Below are positions 9,038 to 48,600 of a stretch of DNA of 64,000 nucleotides, piece by piece. The notes beneath the pieces were generated by a model. The model worked only from the letters and a program-made list of their open reading frames with translations. It was not told the DNA's origin and made no database searches. Source of the stretch: Candidatus Poseidoniaceae archaeon (GTDB taxonomy: Archaea > Thermoplasmatota > Poseidoniia > Poseidoniales > Poseidoniaceae); the NCBI GenBank assembly GCA_964228815.1, contig CAXRAL010000008.1, positions 3,132-67,131 on the forward strand, given 5' to 3'. Numbering within the stretch: the first letter of the stretch is position 1; each line of letters begins with the position of its first letter. The position numbers and the translations under genes are program-made.

Positions 9038-10150
9038 TCAGTAATGTGAGAATTCCACGCCTTCGATGGCGTGGGTCACACGGTGGCCGTGGTCCCTGAC
9101 ATGGCCGACGATAGCCACCCCTTTCATGCGTTGTTGCAACCAGTCAACGACAGCGGATGCATGGTTGGCGTCCACGGCGACGACCATGCCCATGCCCATG
9201 TTGAACGTGCGGTACATCTCTCTGTTTTCCACACCGCCGGCGGACTGGAGCCACGTGAACTCGGGAAGCACCGGGAGTGGAGTATGGATGTCCCATCCCA
9301 GGGAGGGATGGAGGCGGAGCAGGTTGGACAACCCTCCACCCGTGATGTGGCAAATCCCTCTCACATGCTCGATGTTGAAGGGTGCGTCGCCGCGAGCAGC
9401 GTTGAGCAGGTCAACCACCGGGTCGCAGTAAATTCGGGTGGGGTTGAGGACCACTTCGCCCAAGGTGGGGGCGCCATCGGTCCAACGCATCAGCGCTCGT
9501 CCGTCGTGGTCGGCATTGAACGGTGCGAAATCGGTGTAGGTCAAGCCGGCATGTTCGACGATCTTGCGAACCAAGGAATAGCCGTTGGAATGAATCCCCG
9601 AAGCGGGCAGCCCGATGAGCACGTCACCGTCTTGGAGATGTTCGCCGGTGATGGCTTGTCCCTTGGGCAGCCAGCCGAGGGCTGTGCCCGAGAGGTCGAG
9701 CTCCGTGACGATGCCGGGCAGTGAAGCGGTTTCTCCACCTGCGAGCGTGACACGAGCCAGACGGCACGCTTCGGCCAAGGAAGCGCCGAGCGCAGCATGG
9801 ATGGCCGGGTCGGGCTTTGGAACGGCCACGTAGTCAACAAAGGCGATGGGTTCAGCACCCACGCACAACAGGTCGTTGACGTTCATGGCCATGCAGTCAA
9901 TGCCCACGCCGCCCCACTGCTCCAACATCGTGGCAATTTGCAATTTACTACCCACGCCGTCAGTAGCCATGGCGAGCAGGTTGTCACCGAATTCGATCAG
10001 CCCGCCAAATCCGCCAGGAAGGTCCACGGGGGCGCCTGGTGTCCCGGGTTGTCGGACGCTCTTCGACAGGGCACCGATGAGCGAGGCGACGGCTGAACCC
10101 TCGAGATCGATGTCAACCCCCGCACTGGCGTAGTCCATGGGCTCACTCAT
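9038..10150 (-). CDS. purM: Phosphoribosylformylglycinamidine cyclo-ligase (AIR synthetase)
   Basis: YASAGVDIDLEG..., GGFGGL, DGVGSKL and a C-terminal PurM-like domain. ATG 10150 (MSEPMDYASAGVD) is preferred over the ORF-track start at 10198. Confidence 0.9.
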   Translation of the reverse strand: MSEPMDYASAGVDIDLEGSAVASLIGALSKSVRQPGTPGAPVDLPGGFGGLIEFGDNLLAMATDGVGSKLQIATMLEQWGGVGIDCMAMNVNDLLCVGAEPIAFVDYVAVPKPDPAIHAALGASLAEACRLARVTLAGGETASLPGIVTELDLSGTALGWLPKGQAITGEHLQDGDVLIGLPASGIHSNGYSLVRKIVEHAGLTYTDFAPFNADHDGRALMRWTDGAPTLGEVVLNPTRIYCDPVVDLLNAARGDAPFNIEHVRGICHITGGGLSNLLRLHPSLGWDIHTPLPVLPEFTWLQSAGGVENREMYRTFNMGMGMVVAVDANHASAVVDWLQQRMKGVAIVGHVRDHGHRVTHAIEGVEFSHY

Positions 10151-10194: not shown

Positions 10195-10803
10195 TCACGC
10201 GTCCATCACGAGGCGGGTGAGTGGAATCAGTTCACCCAAACTCTCGTGAAGCCGATGGCCATCGTCCACTTCATGAAGGGAAACGTGGTCGAGAGCGCCT
10301 TTGGCTCGTTCGCTGTTGGTCAGCGGCACGACATCATCCCCGGTCCCGTGAAGGATGGCCGTTGGGTGGTGCAGCGCGGGCCACGAATGTGTTCGTGCGA
10401 CCTCAACAAAGGACCACGGCATGATGACAGGTTCGTCCCATCCGGGGGGTTGGAAGGTGTGGGTGCCGGACTGTTCCCACGCCTCCATGGCTTGCTGGCC
10501 GAGGGTGGAGGCCACCAGTTCATCGTAGCCAAAAGCGGGTGCCAACAGGACGAGACGAAGGTCGGCTTCGGGACGTAGAGCTGCAGCATTGGCCGTGGCC
10601 AGGCCACCGAACGAGGAACCGATGAGCACGTCAAACGGACCCAACTCGTCAATGGCCTCGAGGACCACGCGCGTTTGACTGGCTTGGTCCCACCCGTACT
10701 TCCGCATGTCAAGCGTGGTAACGTCCCACCCCTGGGCTCGCATCCATGCTGCTTTGCTGCTGTCGGCGCTGGACCACAAACCATGAGCGAAGGTGACCTT
10801 CAT
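10195..10803 (-). CDS. Alpha/beta hydrolase (YqiA/esterase-like)
   Basis: About 200 aa from ATG 10803 (MKVTFAHGLWSS...), with nucleophile elbow GSSFGG and C-terminal LHGTGDDVVP...DDGHRL. Confidence 0.65.
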   Translation of the reverse strand: MKVTFAHGLWSSADSSKAAWMRAQGWDVTTLDMRKYGWDQASQTRVVLEAIDELGPFDVLIGSSFGGLATANAAALRPEADLRLVLLAPAFGYDELVASTLGQQAMEAWEQSGTHTFQPPGWDEPVIMPWSFVEVARTHSWPALHHPTAILHGTGDDVVPLTNSERAKGALDHVSLHEVDDGHRLHESLGELIPLTRLVMDA

Positions 10804-10849: not shown

Positions 10850-10888
10850 TTCTCCACACGACGCTCGAAGCGTGGAAAACAAGGGGTG
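10850..10888 (+). promoter_or_regulatory. ORB-like element A (split: TTCTCCAC-14 nt-GTGGAAAACAAGGGGTG)
   Basis: Read directly in the hydrolase/mcm spacer. The right half is near-identical to element B, and the left heptamer TTCTCCA is identical. Confidence 0.4.
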
Positions 10889-10901
10889 TGCGCGGCCTCA
10901 A

Positions 10902-10925
10902 TTCTCCAGTGGAAACAGAGGGGTG
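10902..10925 (+). promoter_or_regulatory. ORB-like element B (TTCTCCAGTGGAAACAGAGGGGTG), candidate Orc1/Cdc6 binding site
   Basis: Dyad TCCA-G-TGGA, then AAAC, then a G-string. This is the architecture of archaeal origin recognition boxes as I remember them. It lies 63 nt upstream of the mcm ATG. Confidence 0.5.
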
Positions 10926-10987
10926 CATTACCGCATCGAGAATTGATAAATACCGTGGCCTACAATGGCTAACGCCCGGAGGTGAAG

Positions 10988-13120
10988 ATGGTGAGTGCGA
11001 TTCAAGAATTCGACCTCCCCGCTCGTTGGACTTCTCTCCTCCAGGACAAGTACTCCGAAGCCATTCACAACCTCGCCAAGATGTGGCCCGACGAGGGTTC
11101 CCTTGAGGTGTCGTTCCGTGAGGTTGAGGGCTACGACCACGAATTCGCTCAGGACATCCTTGCCAACCCCGACCACCACTTCCGTGCGGCGAATCAGGCC
11201 TTGCGCCAATTCCTGCTGGACGCCGGTGAAGGGAACTTGATGCCGTTCGTTCGTATCATCCATCTTCCAAGCGACCAGGTCCGAACGGTGTCTCAACTCC
11301 GCGCCGATGACATCGGACGGATGATCGCCATCGATGCCGTCACGACCAAGATCACCGGTGTTCGCCCTCGCTTGTACTCGGCCGTGTTCGAATGCGTGGC
11401 CTGCGGGCACAGCATGGAGATCAACCAGCCCAACGAGCAGGAACTGATCGAGCCCCTGGAGTGCTCTCAAATCGACGGCGGCTGCGGCCGACCCAAGCGA
11501 CAAACGCGCTTCTTGCTCCAGCAGCAGGCCTCCCATCTCATCAACTCGCAATTCATTGAACTTCAGGAACTTCCCGAGCAGATGAAAGGCGGCATTCAGC
11601 CCGAGCGCATCCTTTGCATTGGCGAGCAAGACTTGGCCGGCCGGCTGAACCCTGGTGACCGCGTCAAGGCCAACGGTGTCCTGTTCATCCGCTCTCAGCG
11701 CAAAGGCGGCAAGGACACGCCGGTGTTCGACATCTTCCTTCGTATCCATTCGCTGGAACGGCAGAACATCCCGCTGGAGGAAATCATCATCTCCGAAGAG
11801 GAGGAGAACGAAATCCGCGACATCGCCCGAGACCCTCAGGTCTACGACTTGCTGACGCGAAGCATTGCACCTTCCATCTTTGGCATGGAGAAGATCAAGG
11901 AATCACTCATGCTCCAACTCTTTGGCGGCGAAGCTCAAGTCAACGAAGACGGCACCCGAAACCGCGGCGACATCCACATCCTGTTGATGGGCGACCCCGG
12001 TGTGGCCAAATCACAACTTCTGCATTACATGTCCACCATCTCACCACGTGGACGTTTTGCTTCCGGTCAATCCGCTTCCGCTGCAGGGCTGACTGCTGCC
12101 GCCGTGCAGGATGCGGCAGCTGACGGTCGCTGGACCCTCGAGGCCGGTGCCTTGGTGCTGGCCGACCTTGGCTTGGCAGCCATCGATGAATTCGACAAAA
12201 TGAACGCGGCCGACCGCTCGAGCATGCACGAAGCGATGGAACAGCAGAGCATCTCCATTTCCAAAGCCGGCATCAACGCCAGCCTTCGCACCCGTTGCGC
12301 TGTGCTCGCTGCCGCCAACCCCACGAGCGGGCGTTTCCAGCCGGTCAGCGATGTCCCGTTCACTTCGCAGATCAACCTCGCGCCACCCTTGATTTCTCGA
12401 TTTGACATCATTTGGTTGTTGACCGATACGCCCAACGAATCCCACGACGAAAAAATTGCATCGCACATCATCGCGAACAGGCTGAAGGGAAGCAGTGAAT
12501 TGCTCGTGAAGGAAGGCACCATTCCCGACCCTACCCGCTCCACGGCCCAGCGAAAAGAAGCCAAGAAGGCTGATGGCACGTACGAGGTGCTTCCCCGGGA
12601 ACTCCTTCGAAAGTACGTGGCCTATTCCAAACGCATGTTCCATCCAAAACTCAACGACGAGGCGCGAGAAATGATCGTCGCCTACTACGTGGAAACGAGA
12701 AAATCCGGCGGAGAATCCGAGGACAGCGTGGCCATCACCGCACGATCACTCGAGGCCCTTTCTCGTCTCGCTGAAGCCAGCGCACGCATCCGCCTCTCTG
12801 AAACCGCTACCGCTGATGACGCTAAGCGTGCCATCCGACTGACGAAGACCTGGCGGCACGAACTCATGGGCGAGAACTTTGACATGACGACCATCGAGTC
12901 AGGCAAGAAAGGAAAGGTCCGAAACCAAGAGAAAACCATCATCGATATCGTTTCGGTACTGCAAAACGATTCGGGAACGGCCGCTAATTTACTCGACGTG
13001 TTAACCGAAGCTGAACGTCGAGACATTCCGCGCAGCAAGGCGGAGGACATCATCGACAAATTGTGCCGAGACGGGCGCATGATGCGACCTTCCGGCTACG
13101 ACACCCTCCAGATTGTTTGA
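10988..13120 (+). CDS. mcm: Replicative helicase MCM
   Basis: Zn motif CVACGH...CSQIDGGCG, Walker A GDPGVAKSQLL, Walker B IDEFDKM, arginine finger SRFD, and a C-terminal wHTH-like region. No intein. GGAGGTG precedes ATG 10988, and GTG 10982 is also possible. Confidence 0.95.
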   Translation: MVSAIQEFDLPARWTSLLQDKYSEAIHNLAKMWPDEGSLEVSFREVEGYDHEFAQDILANPDHHFRAANQALRQFLLDAGEGNLMPFVRIIHLPSDQVRTVSQLRADDIGRMIAIDAVTTKITGVRPRLYSAVFECVACGHSMEINQPNEQELIEPLECSQIDGGCGRPKRQTRFLLQQQASHLINSQFIELQELPEQMKGGIQPERILCIGEQDLAGRLNPGDRVKANGVLFIRSQRKGGKDTPVFDIFLRIHSLERQNIPLEEIIISEEEENEIRDIARDPQVYDLLTRSIAPSIFGMEKIKESLMLQLFGGEAQVNEDGTRNRGDIHILLMGDPGVAKSQLLHYMSTISPRGRFASGQSASAAGLTAAAVQDAAADGRWTLEAGALVLADLGLAAIDEFDKMNAADRSSMHEAMEQQSISISKAGINASLRTRCAVLAAANPTSGRFQPVSDVPFTSQINLAPPLISRFDIIWLLTDTPNESHDEKIASHIIANRLKGSSELLVKEGTIPDPTRSTAQRKEAKKADGTYEVLPRELLRKYVAYSKRMFHPKLNDEAREMIVAYYVETRKSGGESEDSVAITARSLEALSRLAEASARIRLSETATADDAKRAIRLTKTWRHELMGENFDMTTIESGKKGKVRNQEKTIIDIVSVLQNDSGTAANLLDVLTEAERRDIPRSKAEDIIDKLCRDGRMMRPSGYDTLQIV

Positions 13121-13168
13121 GTTTCAATCAAGGGTTGTGCTCATGAAGGGTGAGCGCTTGGCAAGCAC

Positions 13169-15187
13169 ATGGCCGATGAACCCCAAGGTGATGTTCACCA
13201 GCCGTCGCAGTTGGACCCTGACCAATTGGGGTTCATGTGCGGTCTTGAGGTCCACCAACAACTCGCCACGGGAAAACTGCACTCCCGAGAGACCGGCGAA
13301 CTCTACGACATCACCATCGATACCCTCCCCGACGACTGGCCGACCTTTGAGCGTCGCCTGCGCGCCAGCCGTGGTGAAGGGGGAGCCGTCGACGTCGCTG
13401 CCCGCTTTGAGTCCAAGCGAAATCGCACGTTTGTCTACGCTCAATCGCCCAACGCTGGTCTCATTGAACTTGACGAACAACCGCCGCTGGCTCTCGACGA
13501 AGACGCTCTCGACATCACGCTCACCGTTTCCGCCCTCCTCAATGCAAAGCCCGTTTCGTTGATTCAGACCATGCGAAAAACGGTGGTGGACGGTTCCAAC
13601 ACCAGCGGTTTTCAACGCACGTCCCTCATCGCCACGGACGGCGCCCTCGAGACGTCCGAGGGGCCCGTAGGTGTTGATGTGGTGTGCCTTGAGGAGGACA
13701 GCGCCCGGAAATTGGACACGGTTGACCTCGGACACGGCCAGCAAGTCATTTACAACCTCGACCGATTGGGACTGCCACTCATTGAAATCGCGACATCGCC
13801 CGATGTCCGCTCCCCCGACCACGCCAAGACCACCGCCATCGCGCTGGGGCGTGTCCTTCGCCGAACCCGACGTGTTCGCCGAGGCTTGGGCAGCATTCGT
13901 CAAGACCTCAACGTCTCCATCGCCGCCGGCGACCGTGTGGAGATCAAAGGGTGCCAGGACCTCAATTGGATTCCGACCATCATCCGTCTTGAGATGGCTC
14001 GTCAGTTGCATTTCTATCGCTTGGCCAACGACCTTCGCGCCGACCTCAACCTCTCGCCCCTCTCCCCTCACCGGGATGATGACGACGAGGCAACCGAACA
14101 ACAGGTTGCTCAGGCCGTGGCCGAGCATCTTCCACTCGACCTGCACGATGTCTCGGCCTTGTTTTCCTCAACCCAGTCGGGCATGATCGCTGACGGATTG
14201 AGTGGCGGCTCGCTGATGATGGCGCTTCCGCTGAAGGGCTTATTGGGGCGCCTCGGGACGAAGACGAAGGACGACGACGGTGCCCAACTGCCTCGTCTCG
14301 GTCGTGAACTGGCCGGCGCTGCCAAATTGGCCGGTGTGAAGGGCATCTTCCACGCCGATGAGTTGCCCGCCTACGGCATCACCACTGACGAAGTCAGCGC
14401 CGTTCGTTCCAGCCTAAAGCTGGCCGAAAGCGACGCCTTTGTGTTGTGCTGCGCTCCTGCATGGCAAGCCCGTTTGGCCCTCGAAGCTGTGCTCGACCGG
14501 GCTCGTTTAGCGTGGCACCGAGTTCCCCAAGAAGTTCGAAATGTCGTGGTGAAGAAAGGTGCACCTGAAGACGGCACTACCTCACCCATGCGCCCCCTCC
14601 CGGGGCGGTCCCGAATGTACCCCGAAACCGACGTCCCGCCACGCGTGCTCAATGTGACCGATTGGTCGGCGGTGATGACGTCGCTCCCCATGTCGGATGA
14701 AGCCCGTGCGAACCGCCTCGCGACCTATGAGATGTCCACCGATCAAGCGGAGCAACTGCTGGCTCGAGAATTGGATGACCTGTTTTGCGAACATGTCGCC
14801 GCCCTTCCGGCCAAGGCATGGGCTGCCCTGTTGCTGAACCACGACACTGAATCGCCCGAAACCCTCGCCAACGTGTTGGCGCTTCGGGAGGAAGGGGCGC
14901 TGGCCCGCGATCACGTTGACCGAGTGGTGGAAGCCCACAGCGGGCACCTCGTTTCGCTGGATGAACTACGAGCCTACTGCGCCGCACACGCGCTGGCACC
15001 GGCCGACATCGGTGGTCTCGACGAGGTGATTCAGGGCATCGTGGCTGAACGCTTGGATTTCGTGAAAGAGCGCGGCATGGGCGCCATGGGGCCCCTGATG
15101 GGCGTGGTCATGCAGGCGGCCGGCGGCGCTGACGGAAAGGAAGTCAGCGCGTTGCTTCGGGCTGCGATTCAAGCCGTGTTGGAGTGA
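13169..15187 (+). CDS. gatE: Glu-tRNA(Gln) amidotransferase subunit E
   Basis: LGFMCGLEVHQQL... GatB/E core with the GatE-type insertion and a YqeY-like C-terminal tail. At 672 aa it is an archaeal-specific enzyme. Confidence 0.9.
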   Translation: MADEPQGDVHQPSQLDPDQLGFMCGLEVHQQLATGKLHSRETGELYDITIDTLPDDWPTFERRLRASRGEGGAVDVAARFESKRNRTFVYAQSPNAGLIELDEQPPLALDEDALDITLTVSALLNAKPVSLIQTMRKTVVDGSNTSGFQRTSLIATDGALETSEGPVGVDVVCLEEDSARKLDTVDLGHGQQVIYNLDRLGLPLIEIATSPDVRSPDHAKTTAIALGRVLRRTRRVRRGLGSIRQDLNVSIAAGDRVEIKGCQDLNWIPTIIRLEMARQLHFYRLANDLRADLNLSPLSPHRDDDDEATEQQVAQAVAEHLPLDLHDVSALFSSTQSGMIADGLSGGSLMMALPLKGLLGRLGTKTKDDDGAQLPRLGRELAGAAKLAGVKGIFHADELPAYGITTDEVSAVRSSLKLAESDAFVLCCAPAWQARLALEAVLDRARLAWHRVPQEVRNVVVKKGAPEDGTTSPMRPLPGRSRMYPETDVPPRVLNVTDWSAVMTSLPMSDEARANRLATYEMSTDQAEQLLARELDDLFCEHVAALPAKAWAALLLNHDTESPETLANVLALREEGALARDHVDRVVEAHSGHLVSLDELRAYCAAHALAPADIGGLDEVIQGIVAERLDFVKERGMGAMGPLMGVVMQAAGGADGKEVSALLRAAIQAVLE

Positions 15188-24226: not shown

Positions 24227-27200
24227 ATGGAGGGAACACCGAGCATCACATCGGAACACGTCCCTGCAGGCGAGGGTCTTCCACCGTGGCTGTTCGAAGC
24301 CCTCTGCCACCCCATGGAGCACGCTCCGTTCATGCTTCTGCATCCTACGGAACTGCACCGTCAACGCACCCTGGAGCGCTTGAACGAGGCTGGCGTGGTG
24401 GTTACGCCCCAGTATCATCTCACCCTAAATCGCCTGGTTCGCCTTCTGCACGTAGATCTCCGGCTCCCGGTGCTGATGGATGACGAATCCAGCACCTTCA
24501 TGGCCCTTCACGCACGGTGTGCTGCGGCCGCTGAGAATGCCGAACTCCCGTTCCTCTACACGCCGGGGATTGGCAGTTGGACACTCACGAAAACACGTCG
24601 ACTTCAGCAACTGCACGGCGAACTGCTCCAACTGCGCCGCCCCTTTGCGTGGGAGGGCGACCCGGGCGCCGCGGTGTTCCATCGCTTGTGCCTTGAGACC
24701 GAAGCGGCGGCGGGTGCCATGCTGCCAGCACTGGTTTCTCGACATGTCCTTGAGGCGTTGCAGACGGCCACAGATATACCGTTTCATCTCAGTGAAGTGG
24801 CCGGCCTGATTGTCCTCGACGCCGCCCCGGACTTCAACGAAGTCGAACAAGACCTCCTCACTGCTGTATCCACTTTTACTCCTGTGCATCAGCTGCTCAA
24901 CCCTGGGTCGTTCCGGCTTGGTTACCACGGCGCTTACCTGGTGGATGAACCACCGTGCACCACAGCGAACTTGCCCGATTGGGTACCTCCACACGATGCG
25001 TGGACCGGCGACGCCACGATGTGGCAAACCGACGTGGGACGTGAGCGAGCGACCCGGTTGACGAGGGTGACCCTTGACGAACGAGGCCACGGCATGCAGG
25101 CGGCCCTGACCATGATTCAGGCGTACCGTGCGCACCACGACGGGCACATGTTGGTGGTCGATGCAGGCGTTCGAGATCGGGCCACGACCTGGTCCAACGG
25201 CTTGGCCTCCATCGGCCTTCGGTGGCATCCCGGCTCGGCCGCCATGAACCAGCAACCCACGCATCACGCCGTGGTCAGAGCCGCTCGGTTGGCACAGGGC
25301 ATGAGCGCCTGGTCGCTTGAATCACTGCGGGGCGTGTTCTTCTCCTCCGTAGTCCCCTTCAACGACGACCTGTTTCCTGAGTTGAACCATCCCAGCGAGG
25401 GAACGTGGCGCCCTCAGCCTGACGCTACCGTCTTGGACGACATCTCGCGGCAGTTCCACGTGCTCGGTGGCCCGGGCGCCATCGCCCGCTGGCTTGGTGT
25501 TCTGGCCGGGGCTGAGCCTTCCTTTGCAGAGCGACGTCCCGAAGAAAAGGCCAGGGCGCTTGAACAGACGCAGTGGTGGCTTGCCTGTTTGCTACGCACT
25601 TGGGCGCCGCTTCTCTCCCCAGAGGACCGCCATTTGCTGCGACGCCCGGTGGTGGGGTGCACCAGCGGCGTTGAACTGCCGATGCCCGATTCTCCTGTCT
25701 CCGGCATGGCGTGGCTTTCGTGGTTGCTTACCTCCATTGACGTGGCCCGGTTTGAACAGCGGCGAGCCCCCTTTGATGCAGGCTTTGGGGCCCTCCAGGC
25801 GCTCGTGGAAGCCCTGAACGCCATCAAGGCTCAACTTCTCCACCATGGTCTTCCGTTTGAGGACCATGGCGTTGCGTTTGTGGACCTTCTCGACCACATC
25901 GGGTCTTCAGCAGAGGTCACTCACCAAACTTCGCGAACCGACCGCATCAACGTGGTTACGCCCGACGACGCTCACGGATGCACCGCCGACGTGGTGCTGC
26001 TCGTTGGCATGGACGTTGATTCATGGTCGATGCGCTCTTCAATCACGCCTTGGCTGGACGCTTCGGCCCAACTTGAACTTGGGTTGTTCCAAACCGACCG
26101 CCTGGTTCGCCGTGGGCGCCATCATCTTCGCCATTTGCTGAACGCAGCCCCCACGGTGGTCGTGTTTGATTCCTCTCCTGAAGAGGGCGGAGGCCCGAGT
26201 GCACCGTTGGCTGAATGGTTAGCAGATGTCCAACGGACTGGGGCATGGGAGGCCATGCGAACCCCTCCCTCGTTCCTCCCGCCATCCACCTATGAGGGTG
26301 AAGGGGAACCTCGTCCGTTCCGATGGTCGGTGCGCGAAGACGGCCACGGCAGTTGGCTCACACCGGTGATGCACGCCACCGCCAGCACGACGTCGGGGTT
26401 GCGAACGGTTCGCTTTGGTTTCAGCGGAAGGGACCGACGTCAACAACTCGGTCTCGATGTCCGCTCACATCTCGAACCCAACGTCATGCCCAATCATGCC
26501 GTTGCTCTGGTCCATGCCTACGAAGGCGAGGTTCAGGCCGATCGAAGGCGGCGGCAGCCGCTGGCCAAACACCTTGGCGAACACACCAGTTTTGCTTGGT
26601 CAAATCGAGCACATCTGTCCAGCGTTGATGCCGTCACGCTTCGCCCGACCCGTGCTTCGCTCAAGGTGAACGGCGTTGCAGCCACCGAGTTCCCTCATCT
26701 GGGTCATCGTGAAGAGAAATCCGTCTCCGTCAGCGTCGACCCGCGACCGCTTCCGCCCTACGTCCCTTCAGAACCAGGCCTTTCACAACGCTTTGGCGTG
26801 CTCGACATGCCCCTCGAACGTGAGGTGTGGTCGCCAAGTCGCCTTGAGGCCTGGCTCAAGTGCCCACGCCAAGCGTGGTTGAAGCAACACCTCCGCGCCG
26901 ACGACGACGAAGAGATGAGCACCGAAGACATCGACATCCGAATTCGAGGTCAAGTGGTGCACGAGACGGAAGCAGCCATCCTGCATGGTCACGGGGTTCC
27001 GATGGGAGGTGAAATCACCACTGAGCCACAACCGCTCCATCTTGGCCCCATGGGTGAAGGTCGTGCAGGGTGGGATGCTGTGCTTGATTTCCTCCAGCAG
27101 GATGTTCACTGGCTGGGCCGGCACAACGCCGTTTCCGTCCATCGCACCAAGGACCTCATCGACGCCTCACCCGAGTCCTGGCAGGCTCATCAGGACGGTG

Positions 27201-27964
27201 AAATCGAACTGCCTCCCCGCGGCCGTCTCGCCCGATTGTTGAACGCTGACCTCGCGCTGGAGCACGCCGCTCCCGTGGCGATGGAATGGTCTCCCAGGGT
27301 TGAGAGCGAGCGTTCCGTTCTGCTCGACACCCTTGGGGGAGATGAAGGGGCGGGTTTCCGTCTGTTTGGTTACGCCGACCGCGTGGACGTCGTGGTCCTT
27401 CCCGAAACCCTCCGCTCAGTGCTCGTCGATCAAGGCGTCTTGGGTGAGGATGACCATGAGACACCGTTCCCGCTTCACGATGCACCGCGAGCGGCGCAAC
27501 GCTTGGTCGTCATTCGTGATTTGAAGACCGTTCGGGGCCCGGACTCGGCTTCCGCAGGCTTGCGTCACATGCGCTGCTTGTTTGAAGACCTCCAGTTGGC
27601 CCTGTACGCTCGTGCTTGGGAACTTCTGCATCCCAACGACCGCGTCATCGGTGTTGGTGCCAGCGAGGTGGGGGAATCCACCACGCACTACGTTGAACTT
27701 GACAGCGACCTCGCTGCCTTGAGCGAACACCTGTCCATCGGCGAACTCACCCATGTGTTCCCTCAACACTTCCCGGCGTCCACACCGAGCGGTACGACCA
27801 CGACCCCCTTCCGAAGGTGGATGGCTGAGCGTTTGACCGTCGCTCAACGAGCGGTTGACACTGCCCACCAAGGGCACGTTCACCCCACACCGGGTGCGCA
27901 CTGCAGCTATTGTGCCGTCGCTCACTCCTGCGATGTGTCCCAGTACAGCGGAGGTGATTTCTGA
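24227..27964 (+). CDS. addB: AddB-like subunit: inactivated helicase scaffold with a C-terminal PD-(D/E)XK nuclease and 4-Cys (Fe-S) motif
   Basis: I found no Walker A. AddB-like IVLDAAPDFNEVEQDLL and VVLLVGMDVDSWS are present. Nuclease signature: SPSRLEAWLKCPRQAW, GYADRVDVV, VIRDLKT, QLALYARAW, HCSYCAVAHSC (C...CxxCx5C). The stop overlaps the addA-like ATG (TGATG). Confidence 0.8.
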   Translation: MEGTPSITSEHVPAGEGLPPWLFEALCHPMEHAPFMLLHPTELHRQRTLERLNEAGVVVTPQYHLTLNRLVRLLHVDLRLPVLMDDESSTFMALHARCAAAAENAELPFLYTPGIGSWTLTKTRRLQQLHGELLQLRRPFAWEGDPGAAVFHRLCLETEAAAGAMLPALVSRHVLEALQTATDIPFHLSEVAGLIVLDAAPDFNEVEQDLLTAVSTFTPVHQLLNPGSFRLGYHGAYLVDEPPCTTANLPDWVPPHDAWTGDATMWQTDVGRERATRLTRVTLDERGHGMQAALTMIQAYRAHHDGHMLVVDAGVRDRATTWSNGLASIGLRWHPGSAAMNQQPTHHAVVRAARLAQGMSAWSLESLRGVFFSSVVPFNDDLFPELNHPSEGTWRPQPDATVLDDISRQFHVLGGPGAIARWLGVLAGAEPSFAERRPEEKARALEQTQWWLACLLRTWAPLLSPEDRHLLRRPVVGCTSGVELPMPDSPVSGMAWLSWLLTSIDVARFEQRRAPFDAGFGALQALVEALNAIKAQLLHHGLPFEDHGVAFVDLLDHIGSSAEVTHQTSRTDRINVVTPDDAHGCTADVVLLVGMDVDSWSMRSSITPWLDASAQLELGLFQTDRLVRRGRHHLRHLLNAAPTVVVFDSSPEEGGGPSAPLAEWLADVQRTGAWEAMRTPPSFLPPSTYEGEGEPRPFRWSVREDGHGSWLTPVMHATASTTSGLRTVRFGFSGRDRRQQLGLDVRSHLEPNVMPNHAVALVHAYEGEVQADRRRRQPLAKHLGEHTSFAWSNRAHLSSVDAVTLRPTRASLKVNGVAATEFPHLGHREEKSVSVSVDPRPLPPYVPSEPGLSQRFGVLDMPLEREVWSPSRLEAWLKCPRQAWLKQHLRADDDEEMSTEDIDIRIRGQVVHETEAAILHGHGVPMGGEITTEPQPLHLGPMGEGRAGWDAVLDFLQQDVHWLGRHNAVSVHRTKDLIDASPESWQAHQDGEIELPPRGRLARLLNADLALEHAAPVAMEWSPRVESERSVLLDTLGGDEGAGFRLFGYADRVDVVVLPETLRSVLVDQGVLGEDDHETPFPLHDAPRAAQRLVVIRDLKTVRGPDSASAGLRHMRCLFEDLQLALYARAWELLHPNDRVIGVGASEVGESTTHYVELDSDLAALSEHLSIGELTHVFPQHFPASTPSGTTTTPFRRWMAERLTVAQRAVDTAHQGHVHPTPGAHCSYCAVAHSCDVSQYSGGDF

Positions 27965-30900
27965 TGATTCAGTTCAACAACAGCCAGCGGCTTGGGTTGG
28001 ACTTGGACCGGCACATTGCGCTCGATGCAGGCGCAGGCACGGGGAAGACGACGGTGATGGCCGAGCGCTATGTTCAGCACTTGTTTGCAGCCGACCAACG
28101 AGCCACGCACGTGACTCCCATGGGGCCACGTACACCGCTGTCTGGACATGGTGCGCTTCGTGCACCCAAACGAGAACGGACGGCCCTGCAGGAATGGCCC
28201 GGCTTGCTCCCCTCAGAAGTGGTGGCCATCACCTTCACTCGTAAGTCAGCGGCTGAACTCAAAGCACGTATCCGTCATCGACTCGCTCAGGCTCGGGCAC
28301 GCCCCCCCTCACCCGAAGACCGCGACGGCGCGTTTGACCCGAGGTTGCGCAACGACGGCGACGTGGAAATGCTCCTCTCTGGGTTGGATGAAGCCCCCAT
28401 TTCCACCATCGATGCCTTCCTCAGCCAACTGGTGCAACCCTACGTTGACCTCGTTGCCCTCTACCCCTCCAACCAGCAAGTATCAGAGGAGCGAAAACCA
28501 CTGATGGTGCGAGACACGCTCCACGCTGTTTGGCGGATCCGTTCCGTTGACGATGCTCGAGAAGCGGGTGTACTGAATCATCATCAGGCCTTCTTGGACG
28601 CTCGCAACCGTCTCGTGAATCGACTGGGCGGGCAGGACCAAGCGGAGATTGTCCTCGGTGGATTGCTCGACCGTTCGTTGTTTGTTGAACAATCTCACCG
28701 GTCCATGATTCAGCGGGCAGAAGACATGGGCTTGGCCTGGAACGGCCGGGGACCTGCTCCCGTGGACGTGTTGCTCAACACCATCGCTGAGCCGGTGACC
28801 ACCCTGCTCCCCAATTTCATTGAGGAATTGCAGCGAAGATTGGGCGATTGGGTGCAAACTTTCCTGCCCTACCACGCCAATTGCATTGCGCCGGCCGAGG
28901 CCACGACGTCCCTGACCCGATTCAATCACCTCGTACGGGTCACGTCGCAACCGCTCCCAACCGAGGCCGGCGAGCAACTTTCGTGGGTTTGGAAGGCCTT
29001 GCTCGGCATCGCCACGGCCTCAGGTTTGGTCAAACCCTCATGCACGTTTTTCCCGAGGGACGCCCTTCCCAACGGCAACGGCTGGCCTTCTGGCATGACT
29101 TCAAAAACGGGGGCAACAGGGCTTTCAAAAGACGAAAAAAACGCCCTCTACGAGGCTGGAAAAACACACCTTTCTGGCTTGCGTTCGTTGCTAAATTCAG
29201 CCAACGGCACCCTCATCCGCTTGTTGGCTCGCTCTGCTTTTTTGCTCAACCCAATGGACGGCTTTGACGGGATGCCGCTCGACAGCCCTCTTCGATTGGA
29301 ACCCTTGGTCGACCCGCTGCCCAGCGAGGCGGGTGACCGAGGCACCTACGTCTCCGCCGAGCTTCAAGTACAGGTGCTCAGCGACCTTCAGGTGATTCAC
29401 ATGGCGTGCAATCAAATTCTCGCTCGAAGAAAATCCCTCGACAACATGCATGATTTTGACGACATGCAGCGCTTTGCTGCCGATTTGCTGCTGGCCCGGT
29501 GCCCCGACATCTGCCGGCATCGCTACCCGCCGGCGGTCATCGACGCATTGGACGGGCTTGGCGATGAGCCGTGGACCGACGCACACATCGCCCGCGCACT
29601 CACGCTACTCAACGATCGACCAACACTGCTGGAAGACCTTCAACGCCGCGTGGCCATTCTGGGCGAACTGCGCCGCCAGTATCGCGCTTTCATCATTGAC
29701 GAATACCAAGACACCAACCCCTCCCACTACCGTTTGCTTGCCCGACTGTGGGGCCGCCGGCGCCGTCATCCCGACGACCCTGCGGGTCCGTTGGGTGCGT
29801 GGGACCCCACCGTGTGCATTGTTGGTGATATGAAACAGAGCATCTACCGTTTCCGACAAGCCGAGGTCTCCGTGATGCGACGAGCGGTGGAAGCCATCCG
29901 TCAGTTCAACATTGATGAAGAGGGTGAGACTCGCCTTGGCCACCTTCGCGAGGCCGGCTGTGGCCGCGACCCCCGCCCCGTGGGTGGTGGAGGTGAAACC
30001 GGGTCGTTTTCCAACGAACACAGCGGCGAAGTTTCTGTCCCCCACACCTTTGTTCGCTTTGACGAGGAGGACCAGGCGGGTCAACCTTCCATCGTCGGTC
30101 ATCGCTTGTTGCGCCGTGCTGAAGGTCACGTTGATTTGACTTCCAATCACCGAACACGGCACGATTTGATGGAGACCATGAACGACATGTTCGACGAGGT
30201 CTTCGATTCTCGGTACCACGACCTTCCCGGTGATTGGCATGCGGAGGCGCAACGGCTTCGCCCGGCCCGCGCCACCGAGCACCCCGGCGTGTTGGAATGG
30301 CTCCTCCCGGTACCGGGCACCATCACCGAAGTTCCCCTTGACTTGGACGTGGCCGTCAACACCTTCGCCGACCCGAACGCCTCGCAAGTTCACCTCGAAC
30401 ACGAATTGCTCGCCGACCGTCTTCACGCCTTGCTCAACGAGTCATCCACGAGGGTATGGGACAGTGAAGCCGCTTCGTGGACCACGGTCACCGAAGCAGG
30501 CCCACCGGTTCGACCACAGGACATCATGATCCTCATCAACTCACGAAAACACCTGCCAGATTTGGTCGATCGCCTTCGGGCACGAAACATCCCAGTCATG
30601 GCCGACCGACAGGGCTTGCTGTCCATGCAACCGGTGGTTCAACCGCTGATGGCGATGCTGGCACTGATGGCCCGTCCGACCATGCGTAAAGCGGGCGTTG
30701 AACTCGGTCGTTCTGCCGTTGTCGGTCTCTCTGAACGGCAGTTGCACGAGGCCATGGTCTCGCTCGAGGAAGGTGCTGAAGTGTTGCCCCATTTGATCGA
30801 ACATGCACCGTCCGAAGCCGTTCGGTCGCTCTTGGCTCACCTTCACCAACTCATGAGCTGGGGCGCTTTGTACGACGTGTTTGACGCCGTGCTCGACCAC

Positions 30901-32898
30901 TCCGATTTGCTCGTGGCCTATCCAGATGACGCCCAACGTCAATTTGCCGAGGCCTGGGTGGCCATTGTCCAATCCATCGGCAACGACACGGGTCACGATG
31001 CAGCCGCCATGTACCGCCGCATGGTCGAGGTTCGTGCTTTGGGGCGTCAAGGGCCCCAAGCCATTACGCAACCCGATTCAACAGCCGTTCAGATCATGAC
31101 GATTCACGGCTCCAAAGGGCTGCAAGCGCCGGTGGTCGTGGTTTCGGGGTTGTTTGCAGCCGGCAAGGCCGACGCCAGCATGTCCGTCCAGGACAACATC
31201 CTCGTCACCCCGCAGGTGTTGGCCGGTCGCATTCAACCCTGGCGAGCCAAAGACCGCCCAGAGGACGGCCTGTGGGCTTTCGCGGCAGAGATGAACAAGG
31301 CGCAGGACAAGGCAGAGCTTCGTCGGAAATTCTACGTAGCGTTGACCCGAGTGAAAGACCGACTCATCATCACGGGCAGCCCGGGCAACCGTTCGACCTT
31401 TGATGAAGAGAGTGGAACGCTGTCGGTTCGGTTTGCTCCCGACCCACGAACGATGGGTCGCATGTTCATCGAGGGGCTACGAAGAGCTACCTGGTGCGCT
31501 GGTGGCGACGCTCCTTGGGTGTCAGCGGCTGAACTTGAGGCACCTGTATTGCCTCCTTTTTCCTCGCATCAGCACCAAACCGCGCTCAACCCGCGTGCGT
31601 TGTTGAACGATTCGCAGCTTGGCGAGCACGGCTTGAGCGGTTTGAGATTGTACCACCATCCGTTGTGCTTCGACCCCGTGGACACGACCTCACCTCAACA
31701 ACGTGCACGGGCGCTGGCCACGCATCTTGAGACCATGGAAGCGACCGGCCTCTCCACGGCGCCCCCGCTTCGTCTTCAAGAGAACATCAAGGGTGCTGCT
31801 CATCACCTCGACGCCACCTTTGCTTGCCCACGGCGGTACTGGTTGGAACACGTACGGGGATGGTCGACCGAACCCTTCCATCTCCCACAGGCTTCGACAG
31901 CAACACCTCCACAGCGGGCATGGCCCGAGCCGACCACGTTCGGTTTGATGATGCACCGGGTGCTGGAAATCGGGCTGCGAAATCCTCGTGCGAAGTCGGA
32001 GCAGACGCCGCCGTTGGACGCCTCATGGCTGCACGAAGCCGACGACGATCTGGCCTCTGGAGAGACCTTGGGGCGCGTCATGAACGAATTCGGATTTGGG
32101 GCTGAACAAACCGGGTCCTCGCCTGAGGCCTCGTGGCGTGAGCGATTGATGCATCTGAGTTCGCTCATCGACCGTGGCCTGCTCGGCCAGTGGGTGCAAG
32201 GAGCGACCTTGCACGGGTGGACGGTTGAAGCGGTGAGAACCGAACTTCCGTTCTTCCATCGGGAGCGCCTCCAACGGGCGACCTCGGCGGGTGAATCGGT
32301 GGAAAGCGAGCCGCATGGTCCATCGGTGGTTGAGCACGTCAACATGGATTTCAGTGGTCGCGCTGATTTGGTGTTGGCGCTGGTCGACGAGCACGGGCAA
32401 GGGGCGCTGAAGGTGGTGGACCTCAAAACGCGAGGTTGTTTGGGGGCCTTCAACGTCGAAGACCCTTCCAAAGGTCACCCGCTCCAACAGGTGGGTCCCG
32501 AGGAAACCAATCCCGTCCCACAAAGCGATGATGAAGCGGCCATCTTACACGAACACCGTTTGCAGCTTACGCTGTATTCGATGGCCTTGGAGGCCATTGA
32601 AGCACGAAAACCTGCATCCGAACGCCGCCACATCCTGCCACCAGCACTGCTGTTGGGCGCCAACGGCCGCATCGTGGAACTGTCGGAGGGCGCCTTTGAA
32701 CAAGCCAAAGCGGACTTGTTGGCGCATTTGGACTGGCGAGCTTCGGTCCATCTTGACACTCATCACGGCGAACCCGGGCGCCTCCCCTCCGGGTCGCTCA
32801 CCTGCCAGCAATGTGCGTTTTATCGGGGCGATTTGCGCCGTTGCGCTCCTGAAGGTGAACCCTTGGGTTTCGTCAGTCGCCTCAACGATGAGCCGTGA
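27964..32898 (+). CDS. addA: AddA/RecB-like UvrD-family helicase-nuclease (1644 aa)
   Basis: Walker A AGAGTGKT, motif II FIIDEYQDTNP, TIHGSKGLQAP and FYVALTRVKDRLII. The C-terminal nuclease carries ACPRRYW, GRADLVLAL, VVDLKT, QLTLYSMAL and CQQCAFYRGDLRRC. Confidence 0.85.
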   Translation: MIQFNNSQRLGLDLDRHIALDAGAGTGKTTVMAERYVQHLFAADQRATHVTPMGPRTPLSGHGALRAPKRERTALQEWPGLLPSEVVAITFTRKSAAELKARIRHRLAQARARPPSPEDRDGAFDPRLRNDGDVEMLLSGLDEAPISTIDAFLSQLVQPYVDLVALYPSNQQVSEERKPLMVRDTLHAVWRIRSVDDAREAGVLNHHQAFLDARNRLVNRLGGQDQAEIVLGGLLDRSLFVEQSHRSMIQRAEDMGLAWNGRGPAPVDVLLNTIAEPVTTLLPNFIEELQRRLGDWVQTFLPYHANCIAPAEATTSLTRFNHLVRVTSQPLPTEAGEQLSWVWKALLGIATASGLVKPSCTFFPRDALPNGNGWPSGMTSKTGATGLSKDEKNALYEAGKTHLSGLRSLLNSANGTLIRLLARSAFLLNPMDGFDGMPLDSPLRLEPLVDPLPSEAGDRGTYVSAELQVQVLSDLQVIHMACNQILARRKSLDNMHDFDDMQRFAADLLLARCPDICRHRYPPAVIDALDGLGDEPWTDAHIARALTLLNDRPTLLEDLQRRVAILGELRRQYRAFIIDEYQDTNPSHYRLLARLWGRRRRHPDDPAGPLGAWDPTVCIVGDMKQSIYRFRQAEVSVMRRAVEAIRQFNIDEEGETRLGHLREAGCGRDPRPVGGGGETGSFSNEHSGEVSVPHTFVRFDEEDQAGQPSIVGHRLLRRAEGHVDLTSNHRTRHDLMETMNDMFDEVFDSRYHDLPGDWHAEAQRLRPARATEHPGVLEWLLPVPGTITEVPLDLDVAVNTFADPNASQVHLEHELLADRLHALLNESSTRVWDSEAASWTTVTEAGPPVRPQDIMILINSRKHLPDLVDRLRARNIPVMADRQGLLSMQPVVQPLMAMLALMARPTMRKAGVELGRSAVVGLSERQLHEAMVSLEEGAEVLPHLIEHAPSEAVRSLLAHLHQLMSWGALYDVFDAVLDHSDLLVAYPDDAQRQFAEAWVAIVQSIGNDTGHDAAAMYRRMVEVRALGRQGPQAITQPDSTAVQIMTIHGSKGLQAPVVVVSGLFAAGKADASMSVQDNILVTPQVLAGRIQPWRAKDRPEDGLWAFAAEMNKAQDKAELRRKFYVALTRVKDRLIITGSPGNRSTFDEESGTLSVRFAPDPRTMGRMFIEGLRRATWCAGGDAPWVSAAELEAPVLPPFSSHQHQTALNPRALLNDSQLGEHGLSGLRLYHHPLCFDPVDTTSPQQRARALATHLETMEATGLSTAPPLRLQENIKGAAHHLDATFACPRRYWLEHVRGWSTEPFHLPQASTATPPQRAWPEPTTFGLMMHRVLEIGLRNPRAKSEQTPPLDASWLHEADDDLASGETLGRVMNEFGFGAEQTGSSPEASWRERLMHLSSLIDRGLLGQWVQGATLHGWTVEAVRTELPFFHRERLQRATSAGESVESEPHGPSVVEHVNMDFSGRADLVLALVDEHGQGALKVVDLKTRGCLGAFNVEDPSKGHPLQQVGPEETNPVPQSDDEAAILHEHRLQLTLYSMALEAIEARKPASERRHILPPALLLGANGRIVELSEGAFEQAKADLLAHLDWRASVHLDTHHGEPGRLPSGSLTCQQCAFYRGDLRRCAPEGEPLGFVSRLNDEP

Positions 32899-45647: not shown

Positions 45648-48600
45648 TCACAACAAATCGTCGAGGAAGGAGGTGTCAATCTCGGGCATGCGAGGAGCAG
45701 CGGCAGGCTCGTCGAGCAGGCCGTCCAGCAACGAGGGGTCAACTTGAGGCTGAAGCACCGGCTGAGATGGTTGGTAGGCGGTTCGTCCATAATCTTGGCT
45801 CTGGATGCGGTTGGCTGCAGCATAGATGTCGTTGGCTTGCTGCGTTGAGACGCCGGGCGGCGGTGCTGGAGCGGCGGTTGGAGGCGCAGGTGGTGCAGCC
45901 GGTGCCGGCGAGTCCCAGCTCGAGTCCTGAATGCCCCAAGTGGCTTCTTGCAATTCCCAGTTCTTGGAACGACGGCTTGCGTTTCCACGGGCGCGAACGA
46001 TGAGCACCAAGAGCATGACCACGATGAGGACCATGCCTGCCGCAATGAGGTTCGGCGTCGTGAGCAACGATTCGAGCGTGAACGGGCCGTCATCGCTCAC
46101 ACCATCCGTGGTTGCACCGCTGCCGTCGAGGGGGTTCAATTTGACCGACTCGACCGTGGATTTTGCTACCGTGTCGTCGTAGGGCACCACGCCAATGTAG
46201 TACGCTGTGGCGTTGTTGAGGCCTTCGAATTCGTCGTTTGTGATCAGCAAGGAGTTGGCCGATACCGTTTGGCCAACCTTGATGGCGTCGTCGGTGGACG
46301 TGAACATCTCATCGCTGATGTAGATATGATAGCCCCTCACGTTGGCGTCGACCGAATGTTCCCATTCAACAAAGATGCTGGTTTGTTCAAACCACTCTGC
46401 GTTTACCTTGGCGATGTCGGGGAGGTACACACCCGGGTCTGTGATGCCTTCATCGGTCGCACTGGCCGAAACCATCGTGAGCATGTCGGTGTGTGCGTTG
46501 CCTGAAGAATCCACCACGACCACCGCCACCCAGATGGCCTGGCCCGGAATCACCGGTGCATCGTCAGCGACGACGTCGATCACCAGGGGCAGGTCTGGTG
46601 AGCGTTCCAAGCTTGCAATCTTGAGCGGGTCGTTGGAGAGGTCGCCCTGCTGCCCGACTTCGCCGGAGAAATTGTAGGTCGCAGCGAAGACATGGTAGGT
46701 AGCAACATCGTCGGCCTCGGAGAGTTCAAAGTCAAGCAGTAAAGCACGACCGTTGTCATTGGGTCGGTCGGTCAAGGACAAGTCGGTCAACCGGTCTGGA
46801 GCCGTGTTGTCGTTGATGTTGTCGATGGGCGTGACGCTCACTTGGGTCAGGTCGGTCAAGTGGACGTTTCCGCGCAAGTCGTGAACAGTGACCACGACGA
46901 AATACTCCACATCGGCTTGAATCAGACCCGGGGCGCCATCGGCGAGCGAGCCACCCTCGGGGACGACCAAGGCCGTGGAGAGGGTGAGCTGAATGGGGTT
47001 GGTTCGCTCGTCAATCCACTGTTTGTTGAACGAGAAACATCCGCAGGCTTGGGGGTTGCTTCCGAAAGCCGCATAGGCGGTGGAGAGGTCCTCAACCGGG
47101 GCGTTGGAAATCCAGACCGTGTACGAGGCGAAATCCTCGACGGTGGACGGTTCCCACACCACATCGATGGCGCTGCCGTCGTCGTCGGGATGGTCAAAGG
47201 CCATCAGCGAGGTGATGCGAGGCGGCGTACCGCCTTGACCGATGATGTTCTGCAGTGGAGCAGCAGCGACCAAGAGCACGTCGTCGGTGTTGCCGTTCAG
47301 CCAGACATCGTAGGCAACGATGCCGACGGTGTAGATCTGTCCGTCGATGAGCGGTACACCGTCCAAGGACGAAACGATGGTGCTGTTTTCATCGCACGGG
47401 TTGATGACGGCTGCTTGAGCAAAGCCTTCCACGCTTGCGCTCGCACCGTCGGTTGCCGTGTGGTCGCCCTGTTTCATGTAGACCGTGTAGAAGGCACAAT
47501 CGTCAGCCGTACTGAGGTCCCAACTCACGACCAATCGACCTCCTTCGTCGTCAGGGGCATCGCCCACCGTGGTGCCGGTGATGGGATCGGGTGCATCGTT
47601 GTCGTTGAGCTCACCCGTGGGCACCACGGGGCCGACCACGGTAACGTTAGACAGGTTCTCCTGGCCCGCTTCGTCAACACAGGTGAAACCAACCCACACC
47701 GGCACACCAGGGGTCTGCTTGATGACGGACTGGTTGCCTTCGTTGGGAGCGTAGGACGTGTACGGGGTTCGTCCGAGGGCATCCACCATGGGGGTGGTCG
47801 AGACGTAGACGTTGGTTGAGGCCAAGTCAAGGGCCGTACATCGTGCCCATTCGAGTTGGATGTCGCCGTCGTCACCGCTGCTCCCAAGGGCTCCAGCGCT
47901 CGCCCAGAGCGGCGCACCGGGGACCTCATCGGTGGGGGAAGCAGGCCCAAACGGTGCAGAAACGTCGCCCCAGCGACCGTCGGTGTATTCGACCACAGCC
48001 ACGGCGTAGTAGTCGGTGCCGTCCATGAGCGGTGCACCGCCTGCGGTTTCGATGTCAGCGCTCAGTCGGCTGTGAAGCGAGACCGCTTTGTCGGGCGTCT
48101 GACCGAGAAGTTCCAGTTCGGTTGGCGCCGTGGCCCAGGGGCCTTCGTTGAGGAAGATCAGGTAGCGCGCAAAGTCTTCGTCGTGCACGAGGGACCACGA
48201 AGCGGTCAAGACGCCACCTCCGTCGTCGGGTCGGTCGACCAAGCCCTGAACGGCCACGGGGGTATCGCTGCGAACATAATCGTAGGTTAACCTGACTTCG
48301 AGGGAGCCGTTGGAAGGGGAGAAGAGCCGCAGAGCCACATGACGGGTGTTGTCGTAGAGTTGCCCGGTATCCACGGCGTCCTGCAGGTTGCGGCCGAGGT
48401 TGGGGTCTTCGGTCAGGTTCAGCGTGGCATCGTATTGCAAGGCGACGGATTTGGCCCACACTGCAGCGCCTGCAGACGGGGACGTCATGACGACCGGGAC
48501 GTTTTGGAAGAGGAGGCCGTGAATCCCCGGCGTTCCTTGCGTGGCGTCCAAGGCGAACGGTGCCGTGGGGTCAACCAGTTCGATTTGCATGCCCAGGTGG

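Follow-up and report, generated by a model that had tools for sequence, protein, structure and literature searches.

An origin recognition box in fixed register with the TATA-like box of mcm is a probable promoter element in Poseidoniales

The spacer upstream of mcm, the replicative helicase gene, in a 64-kb stretch of Poseidoniaceae DNA (the whole of what was analysed, hereafter the window) holds an element, B, that is on the evidence of its sequence a genuine archaeal origin recognition box (ORB). B probably serves as an Orc1/Cdc6 site within the upstream part of the mcm promoter of Poseidoniales, and not as a replication origin. We give roughly even chances to a broader proposition, that throughout Poseidoniales Orc1 is a dedicated transcription factor of the mcm operon acting through the ORB, and that the origin lies in a ferredoxin/beta-CASP spacer unlinked from orc1. 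The ORB motif is of a known kind; what is new is its promoter-phased, order-wide use at mcm, of which no description was found in the literature searched (on the Poseidoniales origin, the archaeal mcm promoter and the Orc1 regulon). The features of the window around this spacer are as follows.

10195 to 10803, minus strand: alpha/beta hydrolase gene, UPF0227-like, divergent from mcm (Pfam)
10850 to 10862, plus strand: upstream dyad-like box, left half of element A, TTCTCCACACGAC (anchored profiles)
10872 to 10888, plus strand: half-ORB (right dyad arm and G-string), right half of element A, GTGGAAAACAAGGGGTG (14 of 17 positions identical to B)
10902 to 10925, plus strand: element B, full ORB, TTCTCCAGTGGAAACAGAGGGGTG (ORB pattern match and conservation)
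10943 to 10954, plus strand: putative BRE/TATA-like box of mcm, TTGATAAATACC, +38 to +49 from the T of the ORB's TCCA (assigned from sequence and position)
10953 to 10960, plus strand: conserved block CCGTGGCC, consensus C.GT.G.C at +48 to +55, directly 3′ of the TATA-like box
10975 to 10984, plus strand: CCCGGAGGTG, conserved CCGG (+71 to +74) overlapping a Shine-Dalgarno-like GGAGGTG (anchored profile)
10988 to 13120, plus strand: mcm, replicative helicase gene, 710 aa (Pfam MCM_N, MCM_OB, MCM and MCM_lid)
13169 to 15187, plus strand: gatE-like gene directly 3′ of mcm (Pfam GatB_N and GatB_Yqey)

The spacer containing A and B is flanked by the hydrolase gene (start codon CAT at 10801–10803, minus strand) and by mcm (ATG at 10988), which has the same gene call on a public contig. 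The sequences and coordinates that the preliminary description of this DNA had given for the two elements were borne out letter for letter, and no tRNA or Rfam RNA was found near the spacer. Downstream, mcm and gatE are separated by 48 bp in the window and overlap by 11 nt in the MGIIb locus L235 (gatE 12138–14222). Because mcm and gatE stay together in MGIIb loci as well as in the MGIIa window, one promoter is probably common to the two genes and gatE is probably co-transcribed with mcm, an arrangement that would join a replication gene and a translation gene. Elsewhere in the window, two adjacent giant genes (24227–32898; 1245 and 1644 aa) with PD-(D/E)XK nuclease and UvrD helicase domains form an AddAB-like pair in an archaeon, and an ORF of 2779 aa occupies 45648–53987 on the minus strand.

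The core of B, TCCAGTGGAAACAGAGGGGT at 10905–10924, consists of the dyad TCCA-G-TGGA, then AAAC, then a G-string that points toward the mcm TATA box. It thus contains every part by which we recognised an ORB: the dyad TCCA-N-TGGA, AAA(Y), a 3–4 nt spacer and GGGGT. The published archaeal consensus is CTTCCAGTGGAAACGAAAGGGGT (PMC4153887, Table 2) and that of Methanomassiliicoccales is GTTCCAGTGGAAATGG-AGGGGTA (PMC4153887). B is identical at 20 of 22 positions to ORB3 of M. alvus, TTTCCACTGGAAACAG-AGGGGT (PMC4153887), the free central base of the dyad being one of the two differences, and its motif is also the consensus of an inverted ORB pair in the Poseidoniaceae ferredoxin/beta-CASP spacer described below. 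The ORB architecture first recognised in B agrees with the published consensus (PMC4153887). The ORB pattern TCCANTGGAAAYNNNGGGGT, allowing at most one mismatch, has a single match in the window (10905–10924), while shuffled sequences average 0.02, so the motif is not at background frequency there.

As a positive control, the ORB pattern was scanned against public metagenomes and recovered at least 120 loci. Among the 120 matches listed, 34 have orc1/cdc6 in the same locus (28 of them within 600 bp of the ORB); 10 represent the ferredoxin/beta-CASP locus and 2 the mcm site. The same scan of viral contigs returned 24 single matches, approximately the estimated chance level for 16 specified bases. 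One GC-rich deep-ocean contig (L172, 10779–10806) carries within an ORF a ‘double-sided’ ORB, CCCCCCTATTTCCAGTGGAGAATAGGGG, whose one dyad is flanked on both sides by a C-string and a G-string.

Element A (10850–10888, plus strand) reads TTCTCCAC-acgacgctcgaagc-GTGGAAAACAAGGGGTG, with a middle part of 14 nt, and its dyad halves accordingly lie 14 nt apart, compared with 1 nt in an ORB, a form that the ORB definition does not admit. The right half that it shares with B, GTGGAAAMNRRGGGGTG, matches the window at A and B and nowhere else, without a mismatch in either case, where 0.29 matches would be expected by chance even at up to two mismatches. Since the counts for GTGGAAAMNRRGGGGTG and for the ORB pattern both lie far above expectation, the A/B repeat is real and not a chance likeness.

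The two halves of A differ in their distribution among relatives. The left half, TTCTCCACACGAC, is a degenerate form of an order-wide box, TTnCCAnTGGACA, whose TCCA lies exactly 52 bp (about five helical turns) upstream of the TCCA of B. Ungapped anchored profiles conserve GG at −60/−59, CCA at −51 to −49, G at −45 and C at −43 upstream of the ORB, and the 52-bp offset is also present in the MGIIb-related locus L197 and in MGIIb loci. The half-ORB on the right survives intact in just the two nearest relatives (L002 and L004) and is degraded in L003, L005, L008, L064 and L013; family-wide, a weak AAA at −27 to −25 is its sole remnant. A is therefore a degenerate dyad box joined to a lineage-specific half-ORB and not a second ORB copy. 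The reading of A and B as two copies of one element, put forward in the preliminary description, holds for B, an intact ORB, and fails for the composite A. A small ORF or an N-terminal extension of the hydrolase was considered as a source of the conserved upstream box and rejected, as the box persists beside unrelated upstream genes.

Using the MCM protein of the window, we retrieved 80 genome loci, each a species representative; all belong to Poseidoniales/Poseidoniaceae (marine group II), and their MCM identities range from 99% to 62%. Wherever upstream DNA is retained, which is the case in 76 MGIIa genome loci, mcm is preceded by an ORB in its own orientation, one per locus, and a stricter ORB regular expression found no further site on either strand in 1.45 Mb of the relatives' mcm loci. 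Seven MGIIb loci each contain exactly one full ORB within their ~20–22 kb, again upstream of mcm. The same ORB–mcm arrangement is found in the metagenomic locus L197, whose MCM is 41% identical to that of the window and whose nearest named relatives are Thalassarchaeaceae, i.e. MGIIb. The gene upstream of mcm varies among a UPF0227 hydrolase (the window), a PF00756 esterase (L023 and L070) and a PCC-domain gene (MGIIb). With three different neighbours and an unchanged ORB–mcm arrangement, the ORB belongs to mcm and the hydrolase gene stands outside the element.

Promoter anatomy was compared in an ungapped alignment of all loci, with the T of TCCA as position 0. The ORB, at −3 to +19, carries a mean information of 1.49 bits per position, a value that owes something to the anchoring regular expression, which itself dictates some of the sameness at core positions (one of the profiles left the G-string and A9 unconstrained). 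A TATA-like block, aTTAtAtaC.GT.G.C at +38 to +58, averages 0.81 bits, and flanks elsewhere 0.18–0.31 bits. The consensus aTTAtAtaC (+40 to +48) occupies the same register (+41, ±1) throughout the anchored set, at least 95% of which share the A at +43. By contrast, between 79 and 98 nt separate the ORB from the conserved MCM N-terminus, and the spacing of TATA box and coding sequence varies by 19 nt: indels are tolerated 3′ of the TATA box, and none between the ORB and the TATA box. An apparent TATA offset of +23 nt in 10 loci proved to be an artefact of anchoring or of the PWM. Thus the ORB keeps a fixed position and orientation relative to BRE/TATA and is linked to mcm rather than to the divergent neighbour, as would be expected of an upstream promoter element. 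The AT-rich stretch of ~15 bp at 10941–10955, which had earlier been put down as a limited unwinding element, is instead the conserved TATA-like box of mcm, TTGATAAATACC.

The transcription start of archaeal genes usually lies ~26 nt from the TATA box, and that of mcm is predicted at ~10972–10978; with a start near 10975, the centre of the ORB would fall near −60. Between the TATA-like box and the gene, the C.GT.G.C block reaches 0.9–1.5 bits at +50, +51, +53 and +55, and this block and the CCGG may represent a further regulatory or initiation-region element. In one Poseidoniaceae clade (L054–L058 and L061–L063), an extra dyad, TGCAATGGAAC, abuts the TATA-like box of mcm at +30 to +40 from the ORB. 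The register itself recurs away from mcm: three marine contigs (L136, minus strand, ORB at ~1168–1187; L218, 568–587; L176, 552–571) combine a full ORB with a TATA-like box at +41/+42, the spacing seen at mcm, ahead of tiny CxxC (zinc-ribbon-like) ORFs. They resemble a mobile element or virus.

In vitro, Cdc6/Orc1 has high affinity for a lone ORB but not for a lone mini-ORB (PMC1904270); each ORB takes one Orc1-1 monomer with defined polarity (PMC12141716), and marine group II carries Orc1 proteins of both types, Orc1-1 and Orc1-2 (PMC4153887). From the affinity of single ORBs and the presence of these paralogues, we infer that B is occupied by Orc1. In the mechanism that we propose, one Orc1/Cdc6 monomer, most likely the Orc1-1 orthologue, would sit on B ~60 bp upstream of the predicted start, its AAA+ domain on the G-string side turned toward BRE/TATA at a distance of 21 bp. 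The −52 dyad box, and in the window genome the half-ORB, may aid its binding. Placed beside TBP and TFB, bound Orc1 would modulate their recruitment and tune transcription of mcm, or of mcm and gatE, and the supply of helicase would thereby be coupled to the level or nucleotide state of the initiator. Sites upstream of BRE/TATA are typical of archaeal activators, and since B lies in that position activation is favoured over repression, although the sign of the effect is a guess. ChIP-chip in Pyrococcus, the one genome-wide archaeal test consulted, found Cdc6 only at oriC, with extremely high specificity, and a promoter role was not seen (PMC1904270). An initiator that doubles as a transcription factor is therefore not the archaeal default, which counts against the promoter reading.

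Marine metagenome matches revealed a second ORB-bearing spacer, between a 4Fe-4S ferredoxin gene (minus strand) and a beta-CASP RNase gene (plus strand), in which two full ORBs are inverted. The pair was located at the following positions.

L165, 3187–3372: inverted ORB pair in the ferredoxin/beta-CASP spacer
L182, 11052–11228: inverted ORB pair in the ferredoxin/beta-CASP spacer
L226, 5772–5956: inverted ORB pair in the ferredoxin/beta-CASP spacer
L232, 4073–4254: inverted ORB pair in the ferredoxin/beta-CASP spacer
L233, ~9750–9938: inverted ORB pair in the ferredoxin/beta-CASP spacer

This synteny and the ORB pair are present together in 11 loci with GC contents from 0.32 to 0.55, and L165 encodes a beta-CASP protein with 81% identity to one that NCBI assigns by name to a Candidatus Poseidoniaceae archaeon. 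In the seven loci measured, the two dyads are 134–146 bp apart and the segment between the ORBs lies 7–18 GC points under its locus (e.g. 0.55 to 0.40, 0.32 to 0.14 and 0.46 to 0.28). Between the ORBs is a conserved inner motif, TATGGTCGCGAGA (L165, 3282–3294; L226; L233; variants in L229, L122 and L182), which is reminiscent of the ucm motif that UBP binds in Sulfolobus and may be its analogue. Pfam lists placed no orc1 within 10 kb of the spacer. A 240-aa gene beside ferredoxin was considered as a hidden initiator and set aside, as an FAD/NAD Rossmann-like N-terminus was all that could be recognised and PDB gave no match. A third dyad, TTCCAGTGGACAC, overlaps the ferredoxin start codon (L229, 9661–9670; L122; L182, 10904–10913) and shares the ‘TGGACA’ type with the −52 box at mcm. 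On structural grounds, the ferredoxin/beta-CASP spacer is the best oriC candidate for Poseidoniaceae and likely the oriC of marine group II, for which no origin description was found in the literature searched. Such a candidate for an uncultured group would help growth-rate estimates from metagenomic coverage.

Archaeal origins usually adjoin replication genes and dormant origins are known, and the mcm spacer could by the same token be a second, ancillary or dormant origin, or an MCM-loading site at which Orc1 on B and the dyad recruits MCM. The ORBs of the ferredoxin/beta-CASP spacer cannot be told apart from B, and the box 52 bp upstream is a further dyad of Orc1 type. Even so, we regard an origin at mcm as distinctly unlikely. 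The spacer has a single full ORB and its partial elements are direct, as the preliminary description had remarked, with no inverted partner among them; the two or more inverted ORBs of an oriC1-type origin are therefore lacking, and Sulfolobus oriC1 requires each of its inverted ORBs (PMC12141716). The anchored profile shows no C-string to the left of the upstream dyad, where a conserved GG is found instead. No AT-rich DNA unwinding element (DUE) is apparent, given that the 140 bp upstream of the ORB have the same GC content as the locus around them (0.59 vs 0.60 in the window; 0.49 vs 0.49 as the mean across loci). The GC skew proposed earlier as a check tracks gene orientation over the 64 kb, with a flip at ~42 kb for example, and so carries no replication signal either way. 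No orc1 was detected by tblastn in the window or within 10 kb on either side of mcm in the 80 loci, using a consensus Orc1 probe validated on PDB 2qby_A (Cdc6-1; E = 3e-154), nor in Pfam scans of large ORFs of the window. A search for homologous Orc1 proteins gave only Thermococcales-, Halobacteria- and methanogen-like top matches and no Poseidoniales orc1 locus. Finally, exact phasing to a TATA box has no rationale at an origin. Of the two roles initially proposed for the ORBs at mcm, Orc1 control of transcription is thus favoured by the fixed spacing and orientation of ORB and TATA box throughout the order, and an origin is disfavoured by the single ORB, the missing DUE and orc1, and the ORB pair elsewhere.

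The arguments from promoter position apply equally if the protein that reads B is not the initiator. An Orc1-2-type paralogue, which marine group II carries and which is a promoter-binding regulator in Sulfolobales (PMC9738581), or an unrelated winged-helix factor could use the element; however, the motif of Orc1-2 is ANTTTC and no ORB (PMC9738581), and the sequence at mcm is the pan-archaeal ORB of Orc1-1-type initiators, which this family also has in its origin-like inverted pair. A non-initiator reader is on these grounds rather unlikely. It seems less probable still, and indeed very improbable, that Orc1 binds B in a role apart from transcription, either for initiator titration, in the manner of datA or of the ORB clusters of Haloarcula oriC2, or as a mark of chromosome organisation. 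Extra ORB clusters have been proposed as negative control of origins in haloarchaea, and orphan ORBs away from orc1 occur in Methanomassiliicoccales (PMC4153887). One site, however, would titrate very little protein, and neither titration nor an architectural mark needs a TATA spacing exact to 1 bp and an orientation kept across the order.

ORBs are taken to define origins, and the example at mcm warns against calling origins from single ORB matches. If B does act as a promoter element read by Orc1, it would be a case of an archaeal initiator motif recruited to gene control and would link initiator and helicase supply directly through regulation, in a DnaA-like or E2F-like circuit as yet undescribed in archaea.

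In motif, B is the same as the ORBs of oriC1-type origins (Sulfolobus oriC1, Pyrococcus oriC, Aeropyrum ori1 and the predicted origins of Methanomassiliicoccales) and, on that likeness, presumably also binds an Orc1 monomer with defined polarity. Origin ORBs, however, form inverted pairs around an AT-rich DUE, usually beside orc1, while the mcm ORB is single, has neither DUE nor orc1 and is locked to a TATA box. Sulfolobus has as its functional core a 130-bp ORB3–DUE–ORB2 unit, and neither of the two inverted ORBs in it is dispensable (PMC12141716). Closer in form are the orphan ORBs of ‘Ca. Methanomassiliicoccus intestinalis’ (downstream of ftsZ and of nifH/nifE), another lineage of Thermoplasmatota, which are likewise single consensus ORBs away from orc1 (PMC4153887). 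These were reported from one genome, and neither conservation nor promoter phasing is in evidence for them, unlike the order-wide ORB at mcm, and the ORB list of three Methanomassiliicoccales genomes includes none at mcm (PMC4153887). The Orc1-2/DDRE system of Sulfolobales provides a functional parallel, as an AAA+ winged-helix protein of the Orc1/Cdc6 family that regulates via promoters, but it does so as a non-initiator paralogue governing a DNA-damage regulon through ANTTTC and no ORB (PMC9738581).

ORB elements are also tied to a replication gene in Thermococcales, where ORB/mini-ORB repeats accompany dp1 (the PolD small subunit). Those repeats lie inside a coding region that adjoins oriC and orc1, whereas the mcm ORB is promoter-phased and far from any origin-like region. 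In bacteria, DnaA boxes occur in promoters, for dnaA autoregulation and at other genes. The promoter role of DnaA has been mentioned as a contrast to Pyrococcus Cdc6 (PMC1904270). The resemblance to the mcm ORB lies in the reuse of an initiator's origin motif for transcription control, although the bacterial protein and motif are unrelated to those of archaea.
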